Below, one piece after another: positions 30,861 to 56,052 of a stretch of 64,000 bases of DNA (position 1 is the stretch's first letter; each line of letters starts with the position of its first letter). Origin of the DNA: an uncultured Gammaproteobacteria bacterium (GTDB taxonomy: Bacteria; Patescibacteriota; Patescibacteriia; Magasanikbacterales; GWA2-37-8). The DNA lies in the NCBI GenBank assembly GCA_964511375.1, contig CAZEEW010000001.1, positions 70,512-134,511 of the forward strand. The letters run 5' to 3'. The translations under genes and the position numbers were made by a program. The notes beneath the pieces were generated by a model, which saw only the letters and a program-made list of their open reading frames with translations, was not told the DNA's origin and searched no databases.

Positions 30861-30933
30861 AAAAATCGCAAAATTTTTGCAATTTAATTATATCACATTA
30901 TAGAGTTATGATGAAGTAAGAAAAATATATTTG

Positions 30934-30942
30934 TGGTATACT
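30934..30942 (+). promoter_or_regulatory. Extended -10 element TGGTATACT driving island 1
   Basis: Same TGGTATA(A/C)T form as host promoters at 11952 and 40757(-). It ends 9 nt before the ATG at 30952. Confidence 0.4.
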
Positions 30943-30951
30943 CTAAGTGAG

Positions 30952-31285
30952 ATGCTGGCTCGGAGAGGAGGTGAGCGATGAGCCAGTTCAAGCGAGGTCT
31001 ACCACCCGACCTCAAAGCAATGGGTGGCCAGGTTTTCTGCCGGGAGCGGTTTGGTACAATCGTCGGTTACTCAACCGACGCCGCTCGAGGCAGACGGACT
31101 CTTCTTGTTCTCCAGGTCGTTCCTGGGTTCGGGGCGCAGGTGCTCCGGATTTCGGAGAATGACCACGATCTCTCGCGTGTGAGACTGGCGACGGCTTCGC
31201 CATGCTAGCCCCACGCGATAAGAAGGAGGCCTCGTGGCCTGCCTGATTCTCTTTGGCGCCGTTAAACACCTCGCGGCGCCCCTTC
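30952..31285 (+). other. GC-rich island 1 (foreign-composition cassette)
   Basis: Abrupt AT-to-GC switch at ATGCTGGCTCG. Contains an SD, a 76-aa ORF and G/C hairpins at 31227-31240 and 31255-31280. Confidence 0.8.
30978..31208 (+). CDS. Hypothetical 76-aa protein (island 1)
   Basis: A strong SD (GGAGAGGAGG) lies 6 nt upstream of the ATG. No family recognised. Confidence 0.55.
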   Translation: MSQFKRGLPPDLKAMGGQVFCRERFGTIVGYSTDAARGRRTLLVLQVVPGFGAQVLRISENDHDLSRVRLATASPC

Positions 31286-31288
31286 ATT

Positions 31289-31325
31289 AAAAAAAATAAT
31301 TAGCCGCCCTGATTTAAGAGCGGCT
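31289..31325 (-). terminator. Intrinsic terminator of the DNPH1-like gene
   Basis: On the minus strand: AGCCGC-N12-GCGGCT followed by a T-run (aattatttttttt). Confidence 0.7.
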
Positions 31326-32539: not shown

Positions 32540-32822
32540 ATGCGCTAGAATAACAGCTTTTTAATTATTTGTCAAATACATATTTACAATCTCATGCCTG
32601 GACTATTGCTAGGTATCCAAAAGTCTGCTATTATAAACGATCATCTTCAAAAAAAGAAGATGTTCAAATAATATTTACAAGCTCCTTAAAATTCGCAAAA
32701 AAGGCAAATTCAATCTGGCGAACCAACATTTTCTTTTAATTTTAGAAAAAAATGCTGGCTCGCCAGAAGGTCGTTCCTCACGGTGGGGGATGACTGGAAG
32801 GTAAGTTGGAAAGGAAAAAGAG

Positions 32823-33986
32823 ATGGAGTCGGTCCGTCTCTTGTCCTGGAGCTTCGTTCACGTGCTCCAGATGATTCTCAACCTCGCCCGGCGCGGCGGG
32901 GTCGACTTCTCCAACCCCGGTCTCCTCCGTGAGGCCCTGAACATCCGGGCCTGGGAGGCCCTCGACGAGTTGGGGCGCGACCCCAAACACTTGTGGCGGC
33001 TTACGCCGCCCCTGCACCAGGTTTACTCTCGGGCCCTGGCTTACGGAGCTGGGGACAGGTGTAGCCATAATCAGGTCTACATGGCAGCCGAACAAGCCAC
33101 CAGTCTCGCCGAGGTAGCACTCGGTGAGGTGGGGTACAGTTGGCTGTCGCGGCGTCAGGTTGCTGCTCAGCTGATCTACGCACTGGCGAATGAGATCCAG
33201 GGCGATCCGCACGCCCTGGACGCAGCCGAGCGTCAGTCCCGCTCCGAGGCCTTCCTCCGGGAGTTCTACGGGTGCGGGTGGGACGACCCCGACCCCGAGC
33301 TCCAGAAGGAAGTTGAGTACTACGAGCGCCAGCTCGGGGTGCTCTACTGCCTCAGGGCGATCGCGGTGCTCACCGAGCATCCCGAGCTCGACCTCGTCGA
33401 GCTGACCCGCCAGGGCCTCATGAAGTACGGGGTCGTGGACACCCGGGGCCGCCGGGTGTGCTACTGGTGCTCCGGTGCCCCCTGCGTCTGCGGTGGGCGG
33501 AAGGGCGGGATGAAGGCCCGCCGGCCGGAGATCACCTCCGACCTCGTCTGGGCCCGGGGACTGCCGGAGATGGACCAGCACATGGTCGTCTACGGCGTGT
33601 CTCGGAACTCGGCCATCAACGCCCTCGCGGGTGTGGTTCGCTCCCTGTCGGAGGACGGTGGGGAGTACGGATGGATCAACCTCATGTCCCGCTGTGGCGG
33701 GACGAACCGGGGAATCCAAGAGAGGCTCGGCTGCCTCTACCTCGGCAGCAGCCGGCACCCCCGCATGGCGGCCAAGAAGTTCGACGCCGAGGGCGTGCCT
33801 CTCATCGAGGGGCTCTACTCGGAGGCGGCGGACGCCGTCGTCTCCTGGCCCTGCCTCGTGACACAGGCCTTCGGTCTGCAGTTCACAAGGTCGGTCTTAC
33901 TCGGTCTCCAGCACATGGCCGATGGCGCCGGGGTCACGCTCGAGACCCCAGACGATCTGACCCGGACCATCCCGGTCCGCGAGTAG
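32823..33986 (+). CDS. Hypothetical 387-aa protein with Cys cluster CYWCSGAPCVC (island 2)
   Basis: Longest ORF of the island and G/C-dominated third positions in this frame. The other long ORFs here are off-frame or antisense shadows. No family recognised. Confidence 0.7.
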   Translation: MESVRLLSWSFVHVLQMILNLARRGGVDFSNPGLLREALNIRAWEALDELGRDPKHLWRLTPPLHQVYSRALAYGAGDRCSHNQVYMAAEQATSLAEVALGEVGYSWLSRRQVAAQLIYALANEIQGDPHALDAAERQSRSEAFLREFYGCGWDDPDPELQKEVEYYERQLGVLYCLRAIAVLTEHPELDLVELTRQGLMKYGVVDTRGRRVCYWCSGAPCVCGGRKGGMKARRPEITSDLVWARGLPEMDQHMVVYGVSRNSAINALAGVVRSLSEDGGEYGWINLMSRCGGTNRGIQERLGCLYLGSSRHPRMAAKKFDAEGVPLIEGLYSEAADAVVSWPCLVTQAFGLQFTRSVLLGLQHMADGAGVTLETPDDLTRTIPVRE

Positions 33987-34187
33987 TCGCCTCGCCGGCT
34001 GTCCTTCGGGGCGGTCGGTGGGCATGGTTTAGAGGTGGGGCGTTTCTCTTAGGGGAGACGCTTGCGCCTCCCCTATCCCAGTATTTCTTAATTCAAGGAA
34101 TGTTGAGATAGGAGGCTCGTAGACCGACGTGTTTTCGTTGGGCGCTCGGTTGAGCGCACGGCGAAACACCAAACAGAGGGAGGACAA

Positions 34188-34547
34188 ATGGTCCACAAGG
34201 ATCTCAGAATCGAGCTGGTGCTCGGCGGCGTCACTTTTATCATCGTTGGCTTCCTCGAGGCAGGCGAGGAAGTGATCACCGGTGATGAAATGAAGCGTCG
34301 GCTGGCGGCCCGCTCCTTGCGGCTCATCCACGGGGCGGATTTCGAGCACTTCTCTCGCTACCGCGAGGATTTGCCGAAAGAACTCCGACCTCACCTACTG
34401 GCCACAGACCAGTGTGCTCCAGAGTGCCAGAAAGAGACGACCGTCTTCGAGTTCTTCGAAGATGTGGAAGTGTGGCACTCGTTCTGGCACAACCTTTGCG
34501 GCCCGACATGGGGCCACAACGTCTTGGCGGTGTGCTGTTGTGTGTAG
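34188..34547 (+). CDS. Hypothetical 119-aa protein ending in CCCV (island 2)
   Basis: Strong SD AGAGGGAGGACAA-ATG and GC-rich codons. No family recognised. Confidence 0.6.
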   Translation: MVHKDLRIELVLGGVTFIIVGFLEAGEEVITGDEMKRRLAARSLRLIHGADFEHFSRYREDLPKELRPHLLATDQCAPECQKETTVFEFFEDVEVWHSFWHNLCGPTWGHNVLAVCCCV

Positions 34548-34555
34548 GAGGGAGC

Positions 34556-34585
34556 GGTGCCGGCGGGGGACCCCCCGCCGGCACC
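34556..34585 (+). terminator. G/C hairpin closing island 2
   Basis: GGTGCCGGCGGGGG-a-CCCCCGCCGGCACC. The T-run begins only 9 nt later, so this is not a canonical intrinsic terminator. Confidence 0.55.
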
Positions 34586-34691
34586 CGTAGTCCCTTTTAA
34601 TTTAAATCACTAGCGTTGTTTTATTATAACTTACCTCTTGATGTACTAAATAATTATTTGTGATATACTTCATTTATTCTAATTCTTAATT

Positions 34692-51591: not shown

Positions 51592-51602
51592 TAAAATATT
51601 TA

Positions 51603-51632
51603 AAGAGCCCCATAACTGGGGCTCTTGTTTTT
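51603..51632 (+). terminator. Intrinsic terminator after rpoC
   Basis: AAGAGCCCC-ataact-GGGGCTCTT followed by gTTTTT. Confidence 0.9.
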
Positions 51633-51659
51633 GGCTAAAATTTGAGATAGAATAACAAT

Positions 51660-51694
51660 ATAAAACAAAAATCCTACACTTTAAAGTATAGGAT
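51660..51694 (-). terminator. AT-rich intrinsic terminator downstream of the island 3 gene
   Basis: On the minus strand: ATCCTATAC-tttaaa-GTGTAGGAT followed by TTTTTGTTTT. Confidence 0.6.
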
Positions 51695-51751
51695 CTTATG
51701 TATTCCATTTAGCTTCTCTGTAGTCTTTAGCTAACAAGTGTTTGCTAGTTA

Positions 51752-52066
51752 AGGGCCGGGACAGAGAAGCTGTCCGCGGGTTAAAGAGTATGGGAACAGC
51801 TAGGTGGTTCGTCGATCACCGCCTTCGCTGTAGAACAGCGAGGGTAGCGATTGAGAAGAACACACCTCCCACAACCGTCACGCGCTTAGGTTCGCGCGCA
51901 AGATCGTGGAACAAGCCGTCCCCGGTAAGGTCACCGCTCGCGCAGGCCAGGAGTCCGCAGATGATGCTTGCGAACACGGCTCCAGCCACGAGAGCGAGGA
52001 CTAGCCGAACGATCGCTTGATCACACTGCTGGGTCATTTGACCCCTCCATGCCCCCGCAGGGGCAA
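51752..52066 (-). other. GC-rich island 3 (foreign-composition cassette)
   Basis: Abrupt composition switch on both sides. Hairpin GCCCC-tgcg-GGGGC lies upstream of the SD, and GGACAG-N5-CTGTCC lies downstream of the stop. Confidence 0.8.
51816..52037 (-). CDS. Hypothetical 73-aa two-TM membrane protein (island 3)
   Basis: SD GGAGGGGTCAA-ATG at the internal Met of the 91-aa ORF. Two hydrophobic helices (IVRLVLALVAGAVFASIICGLLA; VTVVGGVFFSIATLAVL). Confidence 0.6.
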   Translation of the reverse strand: MTQQCDQAIVRLVLALVAGAVFASIICGLLACASGDLTGDGLFHDLAREPKRVTVVGGVFFSIATLAVLQRRR

Positions 52067-52081
52067 GTTGGAATAGACAAG

Positions 52082-52110
52082 ATTTAATCACGAAAATGAG
52101 TTATAGTCAA
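52082..52110 (-). promoter_or_regulatory. TTGACT-N17-TTAAAT promoter-like element reading into island 3
   Basis: Counted on the minus strand. Lies in the AT-rich gap shared with the divergent gene at 52121. Confidence 0.4.
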
Positions 52111-52120
52111 TCACATTTTT

Positions 52121-55291: not shown

Positions 55292-55349
55292 CACATTCAT
55301 ACATTGGACGTGATTTGTTTTTTAATAGCGAAAATTGCTGTTAAAAAAC

Positions 55350-55988
55350 ATGTCTCGTCCAGGGCGGACGGGAGTAAACCCGCAACGGGAGAGTTCAGAT
55401 GAAGAGCCTGGTGTCGTGTTTCGTGCTGGTCGCCCTGTTCCTCAACCTGTTCGGCTGCATCGAAGCGGCCGAGTTCAACCACTCCGACGCGACGACCGTG
55501 TCGGAGGACGTGGCTAGCGTCCAAGACGTCTCCTTGCCAGAGGAGAACGACATCGCCATCAAGATTCCCCGGGCGGAGTGCCCGGAGGCAACAGCCGGAC
55601 CATACACGGTCCGAGTTGTGATCGACGCCACGACCTGGGTCAGGATCTCGTCCGAGGTAGAGCGTGTCTTCCTCAGCCGGGAGCTCGATGCAGATCGGAT
55701 GGACACGGCCGAAATTCGCGTCGAGTCCGCCGGGTGCGATTTCCAGTTCGCCATCAGCAACAACTCCACGGAGGTCGCGCACGTCTCTGTGGAAGCCCCG
55801 ACAGGGGTTTCCATCACCATCCGGTACGCCCGTGGCGGATCCGAGACCGTTCCCGCGAACGGTTTCAAGCAGGCGATCGTCTACACGGTCGGTAATGTGA
55901 AGTACTACTTCCATTACCAGCCGCCGGGCTGAGCACCAAGGGCGGCAAGTCGCCGCCCGCGAGGCTGCCGCATCGTACTGGCCCTCGT
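55350..55988 (+). other. GC-rich island 4 (foreign-composition cassette)
   Basis: The composition switch falls exactly at an ATG (55350). Contains a lipoprotein ORF, with hairpin GGGCGGC-N5-GCCGCCC (55940-55958) after the stop. Confidence 0.8.
55399..55932 (+). CDS. Hypothetical lipoprotein, 177 aa (island 4)
   Basis: Signal peptide with lipobox LFGC, very high G/C at third positions, and SD-like GGGAGAG 7 nt upstream. Confidence 0.7.
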   Translation: MKSLVSCFVLVALFLNLFGCIEAAEFNHSDATTVSEDVASVQDVSLPEENDIAIKIPRAECPEATAGPYTVRVVIDATTWVRISSEVERVFLSRELDADRMDTAEIRVESAGCDFQFAISNNSTEVAHVSVEAPTGVSITIRYARGGSETVPANGFKQAIVYTVGNVKYYFHYQPPG

Positions 55989-56052
55989 ATTCATTATTAA
56001 TCCTTTGGGGTTGGTAATGAGTACTTACTTCCAGTACGCTTGCGAATAAAAA

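Follow-up and report, generated by a model that had tools for sequence, protein, structure and literature searches.

Phage 'morons', described for lambdoid phages such as HK97, are single-gene accretion units, and class II holins are proteins of about 65-95 amino acids (aa) with two transmembrane domains, an N-in/C-in topology and a charged C-terminus. Here we describe a locus with partial likenesses to both, a short minus-strand unit built around a GC-rich block, found in a 64,000-nucleotide (nt) stretch of Patescibacteria DNA (the window; positions 70,512 to 134,511 of contig CAZEEW010000001.1). The block lies between rpoC and a Memo-CapA fusion gene and encodes a predicted 73-aa protein with two hydrophobic helices. 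Its sequence and that of its relatives indicate that this is probably a real, translated small membrane-protein gene in an autonomous unit. The unit also bears comparison with type I toxin-antitoxin modules, which comprise mRNAs of 150-400 nt, hydrophobic toxins of 20-60 aa and antisense RNAs of 60-200 nt (PMC8594479). The toxin mRNAs of such modules are described as short and highly structured; their Shine-Dalgarno sites are sequestered, and long-distance interactions bring their two ends together (PMC8594479, PMC6733600). An antitoxin that overlaps at the 3' end is known from yonT/SR6 (PMC5848175).

The GC-rich block and its predicted 73-aa protein

The 315-bp block at positions 51750-52064 has a GC content of 60.6%, compared with 30.4% and 26.8% in its flanks (51592-51749 and 52065-52120) and 41.7% in the window as a whole. 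Windows of 315 bp taken outside the four GC islands of the window average 40.8% GC (standard deviation 3.7, maximum 53%). The initial annotation, made from the sequence alone, had reported such a block and called its composition foreign, and both comparisons bear this out; all the features it listed were found again, with a 1-nt correction to some coordinates only. The block sits between the intrinsic terminator of rpoC and the Memo-CapA gene. The rpoC terminator (51603-51626, plus strand), identified by a terminator scan as a 10-bp stem with a T-run, forms the left border of the intergenic region, and its stem sequence is different in each lineage. The region is identical in the Logan assembly of SRR5011273, which was made with a different assembler, possibly from the same reads. 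By Pfam, the neighbours are rpoB and rpoC (in the Logan copy) and a gene that fuses Memo and PGA_cap. An assembly chimera was ruled out, since the second assembler and a sister lineage from other samples give the same arrangement.

On the minus strand, an open reading frame (ORF) runs from 52037 down to 51816, stop codon included, and its translation recovers exactly the 73-aa sequence first proposed. The protein has two hydrophobic segments, centred near residues 12-30 and 52-70, with Kyte-Doolittle peaks of 2.71 and 1.65 in a 19-residue window. AlphaFold2, run without an alignment, places helices at residues 3-37, 42-48 and 50-72 with a mean pLDDT (predicted local distance difference test) of 70. 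The two helices that the initial annotation had described are therefore seen both in the hydropathy profile and as a helical hairpin in the model, and the protein is predicted to be an inner-membrane hairpin in N-in/C-in orientation with an acidic loop and an RRR tail. When 20,000 random sequences with the same dinucleotide content were generated, ORFs starting with methionine, at least 70 aa long and holding at least two hydrophobic segments arose at a frequency of 1e-4; an ORF of at least 70 aa alone is found in about 20% of random sequences with the composition of the core. The GC contents at the three codon positions are 0.69, 0.47 and 0.65, and the frame is the only one of six without stops.

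A GGAGG Shine-Dalgarno site (52044-52048, minus strand) precedes the ATG by 6 nt, as first annotated, and is predicted to be mostly base-paired. Upstream lies the promoter TTGACT-N17-TTAAAT (52082-52110, minus strand; -35 box at 52110-52105, -10 box at 52087-52082), which a stricter scan rule missed because position 2 of its -10 box is T. Downstream, the terminator scan identified an intrinsic terminator at 51658-51697 (minus strand), consisting of a 13-bp hairpin (51697-51668) and a U-tract. Taking these predicted ends, the unit measures about 415 nt from promoter to terminator. The promoter and the downstream hairpin with its T-run had been described as host-like; both are present, but they belong to the inserted unit and not to the host flank.

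No relative of the 73-aa protein was found in a word-indexed search of 5.8 billion proteins. A full HMMER scan of 1.84 billion representatives returned two matches only, both judged spurious because in each case a short motif had matched the tandem repeats of a long protein (2070 and 1323 aa). Pfam, PHROG, PADLOC and NCBIfam gave no match to the protein, and searches of phage DNA, plasmid DNA and viral contigs were likewise negative.

Two smaller features noted near the start codon are also present on the minus strand. A GCCCC-UGCG-GGGGC hairpin (52051-52064), seen in the sequence and in the predicted folds, abuts the Shine-Dalgarno site and is not conserved in the sister lineage. An out-of-frame upstream ORF (uORF) of nine codons, MEGSNDPAV (52021-52050), overlaps the start, with its ATG overlapping the Shine-Dalgarno site. 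Comparison with relatives gives no support to either, and the uORF may have arisen by chance.

Insert states and the shared non-coding frame

Memo-CapA places the source organism in Patescibacteria, near Magasanikbacteria-like lineages. Comparison of this protein revealed only two close lineages, P0004 (77% aa identity; loci L002 and L015-L019) and P0005 (75%; loci L003, L020 and L021, from other samples). These close relatives show three states of the site: no insert in P0004, the insert of the window, and a different GC-rich insert in the L003 lineage. An empty site in related genomes, which the initial annotation had proposed to look for, is thus present in L002 and L015-L019. In P0004, the sequence TTGTTT-N17-TAGAAT is followed 25 nt downstream by the Memo-CapA ATG, and no insert separates the two. 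We take it to be the ancestral Memo-CapA promoter; an exact match to the pattern occurs at 51625-51653 (plus strand) of the window, and all loci of the clade carry it unchanged, while the more distant loci all lack it. Compared with the insert-free L016, the extra DNA of the window extends from the terminator stem to the -35 box and amounts to exactly one transcription unit. The gene upstream of Memo-CapA in L002, L015 and L016 encodes a 1260-aa protein with B12-binding, radical-SAM and aminotransferase domains (L016 1-2896). As this gene is not rpoC, the P0004 region is also rearranged, right at the terminator/promoter junction, with the 30-nt promoter block ahead of Memo-CapA still conserved. 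P0004 and P0005 are 91% identical in Memo-CapA, and the identity tree reads (window, (P0004, P0005)), so to account for the distribution an insert must either have been gained once and lost once, or have been gained twice at this site.

In P0005, 583 nt separate rpoC from Memo-CapA. The L003 core encodes a 99-aa protein on the same strand and at the same position relative to promoter and terminator. This ORF is clearly coding, with GC contents of 0.51, 0.39 and 0.76 at the three codon positions and a codon log-likelihood ratio of +24 bits under a model trained on other GC-rich genes. The protein has two hydrophobic segments and the same predicted topology as the window protein; the chance expectation of such a two-helix ORF, estimated from random sequences, is 3.5e-3. 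The initial annotation had staked its claim on conservation of the reading frame in homologous regions, and this coding two-helix ORF on the same strand and at the same position leaves the claim standing. The two coding parts themselves do not align. Over the ~290-334 nt between the shared parts, comprising Shine-Dalgarno site, coding sequence and short trailer, window and L003 cannot be aligned, either as nucleotides or as protein (protein local z = 1.85, with a reversed control nearly equal; nucleotide local p = 0.30); about 51776-52066 of the window has no counterpart in L003. The 99-aa protein, searched in its turn, is an orphan as well: its sole match was its own sequence, and viral contigs gave none. 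A small GC hairpin with a U-run (L003 1444-1457, minus strand) overlaps the stop codon of the L003 core, which looks as if it had arrived with its own terminator, upstream of the 3' hairpins of the frame. The L003 contig (CAZRZQ010000038.1) is deposited as 'uncultured Gammaproteobacteria bacterium'; its rpoC is 93% aa identical to that of the window over the C-terminal 800 residues, its Memo-CapA/yebC/ruvC synteny is that of Patescibacteria metagenome-assembled genomes, and it is probably mis-binned.

Around these unrelated cores, minus-strand alignment of window and L003 revealed a shared frame consisting of the promoter, the first transcribed bases and about 115 nt at the 3' end. The orthologous promoter in L003, TTGACT-N18-TACATT, was listed by the promoter scan, and the first transcribed bases are UAUUCCAAC in the window and UGUUCCAAAC in L003. 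The shared 3' end comprises an 11-bp stem around an inner stem of 13-14 bp, then UGGAAUA (window) or UUGGAACA (L003), then the terminator. In the window this nested hairpin of the 3' untranslated region (UTR) lies at 51711-51771 (minus strand), and its outer stem, AGCUUCUCUGU/ACAGAGAAGCU, is invariant. The 3' frame is 78% identical over 114 nt, while third codon positions of the neighbours are only 44% (Memo-CapA) and 59% (rpoC) identical between the two loci. Such identity where the synonymous sites of the neighbours are near saturation shows that the frame is under selection. It also qualifies the idea of a foreign island: a relative without the insert supports it, but an island private to this genome and recent it is not, given a non-coding frame common to the L003 lineage at near synonymous saturation. 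What is conserved is thus a predicted small two-helix membrane protein expressed from this frame, rather than any one sequence, since in L003 the frame surrounds the gene of a 99-aa protein that is unrelated yet built alike.

Folding of the shared parts points to the minus strand. RNAalifold gave -36.5 kcal/mol with 41 pairs for the minus strand of the 3' frame and -28.4 kcal/mol with 31 pairs for the plus strand. On the minus strand there are three compensatory pairs, two in the terminator hairpin and one (C-G to U-A) in the nested hairpin, and several G-U pairs would be A-C mismatches on the plus strand and fit the minus strand only. The outer 11-bp stem, being invariant, cannot separate structural from sequence constraint. 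A second conserved element is a helix of 7-8 bp that joins the two ends of the predicted transcript. Its 5' arm UAUUCCA (52069-52075, minus strand) is at or near the predicted transcript start and its 3' arm UGGAAUA lies at 51701-51707 (minus strand), within a 15-nt inverted repeat (I3, 87% complementary) that brackets the core. Partition functions give this helix pairing probabilities of 0.82-0.88 in the window and 0.96-1.0 in L003 despite the unrelated interiors, and an A-U pair in the window is G-C in L003, both bases having changed, which brings the pairs with compensatory changes to four. In both predicted transcripts most of the Shine-Dalgarno site is paired, but it is not part of the end-to-end helix itself. 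As a whole, the minus strand of 51660-52085 folds with z = -8.2 (plus strand -6.8), and no minus-strand shuffle folded as well. For the GC core (51745-52065) z is -5.2 on the minus and -4.4 on the plus strand, compared with -0.95 for the core of L003, so the strong core fold is not a shared feature.

The ancestral promoter has been retained in the insert-bearing genomes, where it points antisense into the unit, and the terminator scan found no plus-strand terminator between it and Memo-CapA. A second, outward promoter-like site facing Memo-CapA, TTGGAA-N18-GAAAAT (52068-52097, plus strand), is weak in the window; its L003 counterpart TTGGAA-N16-TATAAT scores 10 of 12 in the promoter scan.

The frame is single-copy in about 163 kb of DNA, with no further copies in the window or in 27 loci. 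Two frame patterns had no matches in viral contigs, and a 20-mer of the frame had 11 matches in a metagenome collection, all by chance in GC-rich contigs. A covariance model of the 3' frame run over the 163 kb returned generic hairpin-plus-terminator matches only. With Rfam 15, the only gathering-level matches in the window were three tRNAs; in an E-value scan the best matches were terminator-like, with at most 28 bits against gathering scores of 60-90, and the core matched nothing even at E up to 10. A known non-coding RNA was rejected for lack of any Rfam match near the gathering score. A tRNA or transfer-messenger RNA was also considered and rejected, as was a retron, no reverse transcriptase being seen nearby.

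The rpoBC/Memo-CapA/yebC/ruvC region is chromosomal and syntenic across the clade. More distant relatives (53-55% Memo-CapA identity) carry other lineage-specific, mostly GC-rich genes upstream of Memo-CapA (L023 1712-2422, L026 703-2400 and L027 1-2422), among them a 236-aa multi-pass membrane protein between rpoC and Memo-CapA in L023. Since distant relatives carry other genes there, the slot upstream of Memo-CapA is a gene-accretion hotspot. In Patescibacteria, horizontal transfer is reported to account for up to 13% of genome length (PMC12455944).

Proposed mechanism, described systems and rival explanations

Positions ~51658-52110 would make up one complete, autonomous minus-strand unit. 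It measures about 415 nt, separates the ancestral Memo-CapA promoter from the start codon of that gene, and has two layers: an AT-rich non-coding frame under selection and a GC-rich, Shine-Dalgarno-led coding core. The 73-aa product may act on membranes in a dose-sensitive manner, as toxins or holins do, and its synthesis would be held down in two ways. The mRNA would fold compactly, with its ends paired and its Shine-Dalgarno site mostly paired. In addition, the retained ancestral promoter would transcribe convergently across the conserved 3' UTR and, as there is no plus-strand terminator, probably across the whole gene into Memo-CapA. The convergent transcript would be a fully complementary antisense RNA, an arrangement that follows type I toxin-antitoxin modules whose two RNAs overlap at the 3' end. 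The sequences show the anatomy of the unit, its absence from a relative, the conserved and covarying frame, the non-random two-helix ORFs and the difference in Shine-Dalgarno use; that the unit is transcribed and translated, that an antisense RNA is made and that the peptide has any toxicity is what we infer from these features. The locus as a whole is best explained as a moron-like, autonomous unit that encodes a small membrane protein, with control at the RNA level that is possibly type I toxin-like, and we hold this reading with as much doubt as conviction. An overall toxin-like, antisense-controlled logic, proposed by analogy, is a more tentative suggestion. We regard as improbable, but worth stating, a frame that acts as an 'expression socket', in which promoter, end-to-end helix, 11-bp stem, terminator and convergent ancestral promoter would hold interchangeable foreign genes for small membrane-active peptides, GC-rich and preceded by Shine-Dalgarno sites, and silence them by antisense RNA and mRNA folding. 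Such a system, either for cassette exchange or of the type I toxin-antitoxin kind and hok-like, would be linked to a separate Shine-Dalgarno-dependent class of translation in a host that does without these sites in its own genes. To our knowledge, such a socket would be the first described in the Candidate Phyla Radiation, and we know of no description of RNA-regulated toxin-like modules in Patescibacteria.

In its anatomy the unit resembles a moron: it is one gene with its own promoter and terminator between two neighbours, its composition is unlike that of its flanks, it is absent from a close relative and its predicted product is a small envelope protein. Residence in a phage or prophage is what the unit lacks, as it lies in the core chromosomal rpoBC region with no phage genes or PHROG matches nearby, and a frame conserved while the coding part is exchanged falls outside the moron concept. 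The likeness to hok/Sok and aapA/IsoA concerns mRNA folding: a short, highly structured transcript, predicted at about 415 nt, would encode a small hydrophobic protein, and the folds predict that its two ends pair and that most of its Shine-Dalgarno site is paired. As for txpA/RatA, bsrG/SR4 and yonT/SR6, transcription from the convergent promoter would yield a complement of the conserved 3' UTR, and the intergenic, strain-variable location is also that of type I modules. The candidate antisense promoter differs in being the neighbour's own, without a terminator, and neither the protein (Pfam, NCBIfam, PADLOC) nor the RNA (Rfam) matches a type I family. The unit is not a member of the type I toxin-antitoxin family as defined, because the protein is too long and has two helices, homology is absent, and toxicity and antitoxin RNA are only proposed. 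Size, predicted two-helix hairpin, basic RRR tail and extreme sequence diversity recall class II holins, a likeness by prediction only; endolysin, spanin, phage neighbourhood, dual-start motif and family match are all missing, and the neighbours are rpoC and Memo-CapA, with no PHROG or phage DNA match. Integron cassettes share the promoter-proximal slot, the interchangeable and often orphan small ORFs, the deviant composition and the structured imperfect palindrome after each, but the unit carries its own promoter and occupies a single slot, not an array. An integron cassette was rejected, as sequence inspection showed no R''/R' (RYYYAAC/GTTRRRY) core sites at the boundaries of the window-L003 alignment; no integrase was seen in a Pfam scan of ORFs near the islands, the whole window not having been searched for integrases. 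What this analysis adds is a conserved frame around an exchanged core, an ancestral promoter that lies antisense to the unit, and the contrast between island and host genes in Shine-Dalgarno use.

Several observations weigh against this reading. The codon-usage support of the window ORF is marginal, at +2 bits compared with +24 bits for its sister; its GC3 (0.65) is lower than its GC1 (0.69), its frame scores best of six but barely ahead of the in-phase antisense frame, and the ORF is not among the genes called in the NCBI or Logan records. The window core also folds unusually well for a coding sequence (z = -5.2); mutually complementary codons for Ala, Gly, Val and Leu (such as GCC and GGC) may be partly behind it. 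The covariation evidence comes from two sequences only. Moreover, the conservation of the 5' arm of the end-to-end helix could equally be due to the outward TTGGAA box, whose complement the arm overlaps. The proposed antisense RNA has no terminator of its own, and the ancestral promoter may be conserved simply because it still drives Memo-CapA. Type I toxins of 20-60 aa usually have one helix (PMC8594479), compared with 73 and 99 aa and two helices here. Finally, some Parcubacteria are reported to have no anti-Shine-Dalgarno sequence (PMC9297842), and the 16S rRNA of this genome lies outside the window.

The main rival holds that the product is an accessory protein of the envelope, ordinary and non-toxic, whose moron-like gene came by horizontal transfer and serves in immunity, in the exclusion of phages or of superinfection, or in contact with the host cell. 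Its sequence would evolve rapidly or be replaced in an arms race, the RNA structures would only stabilise and terminate the mRNA, and the plus-strand promoter would be kept only because it still drives Memo-CapA. The moron anatomy suits it, exclusion is a role of small membrane proteins with two helices, T4 Imm among them, and full replacement of the coding part fits diversifying selection. The other island genes, which include a lipoprotein conserved but fast-evolving in three lineages, also count in its favour, as do the different GC-rich genes, some for membrane proteins, that fill the slot in distant relatives. Yet phage or defence context is absent, with no PHROG or PADLOC match; the strong conservation of the end-to-end helix and the 11-bp stem is left unexplained; and a sequence-specific interaction sits awkwardly with two unrelated sequences in one conserved frame. 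We rate this possibility as real but rather unlikely. Unlikelier still is a non-functional relic, in which the core is a captured foreign fragment or decaying gene with an unexpressed ORF, and only the frame functions, for example as terminator, promoters or Memo-CapA 5' UTR. It would account for the marginal codon signal, the want of a homologue among the 5.8 billion and 1.84 billion proteins and of a gene call, and an ORF length that random sequence reaches often, in a genome whose host genes do not use Shine-Dalgarno sites. Against it stand the rarity by chance of an intact ORF with two helices, a Shine-Dalgarno site at ideal spacing, the intact and clearly coding analogue in the same frame of the sister lineage, a promoter and terminator that would be purposeless without a product, and a GC content that has not drifted toward the host value though the frame is old.

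The fold scores would fit a structured non-coding RNA, that is, a ~415-nt minus-strand transcript that acts as RNA with closed ends, GC-rich helices, a variable central domain and an incidental ORF. Shuffled versions of the unit and of its core never folded as well, compensatory changes accompany the conservation of the end-to-end helix and of the 3' hairpins, and a GC-rich intergenic block in an AT-rich genome is a classic sign of such RNAs. We nevertheless consider this very unlikely. Rfam gave no match, the core is not conserved in the sister, whose own core has z = -0.95 and is clearly coding, and two-helix ORFs are non-random at both loci; the complementary codons mentioned above could inflate the fold scores. 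The inverted repeat that brackets the core, the palindrome GACAGCTTCTCTGTC at the core/frame boundary, and the presence of inserts in the window and L003 with absence from L003's closer relative would suit a mobile element, either a miniature inverted-repeat transposable element (MITE) or a site-specific cassette, inserted independently at the same site in two lineages and using the inverted repeat or 3' hairpin as a recombination site. This is hardly credible, as the repeat is set back ~35-45 nt from either end of the insertion, no target-site duplication can be seen, the boundaries hold no GTTRRRY core sites, and the single-copy frame had only chance 20-mer matches, none in viral contigs, and no similarity to the flanks of the other islands. 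A MITE or transposon with terminal inverted repeats was rejected, its repeats being internal and the element single-copy.

If the small membrane-protein unit under RNA control is real, streamlined Patescibacteria hold small orphan membrane-protein genes that gene callers miss and that can be recognised by composition and Shine-Dalgarno site. A non-coding expression frame could then outlive its coding content, implying that selection favours a small hairpin peptide of the membrane, whatever its sequence, tightly controlled by RNA. If the reading fails, the locus is one more lineage-specific orphan gene at a variable site.

Shine-Dalgarno sites and the other GC-rich islands

Strong Shine-Dalgarno sites were found at none of the ~44 host ORFs of at least 150 aa in the window. 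Every ORF of a GC-rich island, in contrast, has a GGAGG-like site at proper spacing, namely those at 31 kb, 33-34 kb (two), 52 kb and 55 kb, and so does that of the L003 core. This suggests two classes of translation start in one genome. At the 55-kb island the site (GGGAGA or GGGAGG) is kept across three lineages amid diverged flanks, so the host can probably use Shine-Dalgarno sites. GC-rich genes led by such sites thus form a persistent class in the clade. If true, the split gives a handle on translation start in Parcubacteria-like lineages and on the expression of foreign genes there.

The four GC islands of the window show no similarity to one another. The 55-kb island (55336-56040), between ruvC and a SpoU methylase gene, carries a lipoprotein ORF (55399-55932, plus strand) with an LTGC or LFGC lipobox. 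The lipoprotein is present in all three close lineages (L016 6298-6813; L020 6278-6793) with a GC3 of 0.77-0.82, and absent from L023 and L026, where ruvC abuts SpoU. It is fast-evolving, and its high GC3 persists though the synonymous sites of its neighbours are near saturation; deposited gene calls disagree on its strand. The island at 30932-31298, between pilB and a gene for a 140-aa protein, holds an extended -10-like site TGgTATACT, the sequence GGAGAGGAGG and a 76-aa ORF (30978-31208, plus strand) whose product is not hydrophobic and has no Pfam or Rfam match. The largest island (32753-34628; 1.9 kb, 63% GC) contains plus-strand ORFs of 387 aa (32823-33986, GC3 0.86) and 119 aa (34188-34547, with a GGGAGG site), and its sole match is a weak JetD-like one in PADLOC (E = 0.002).

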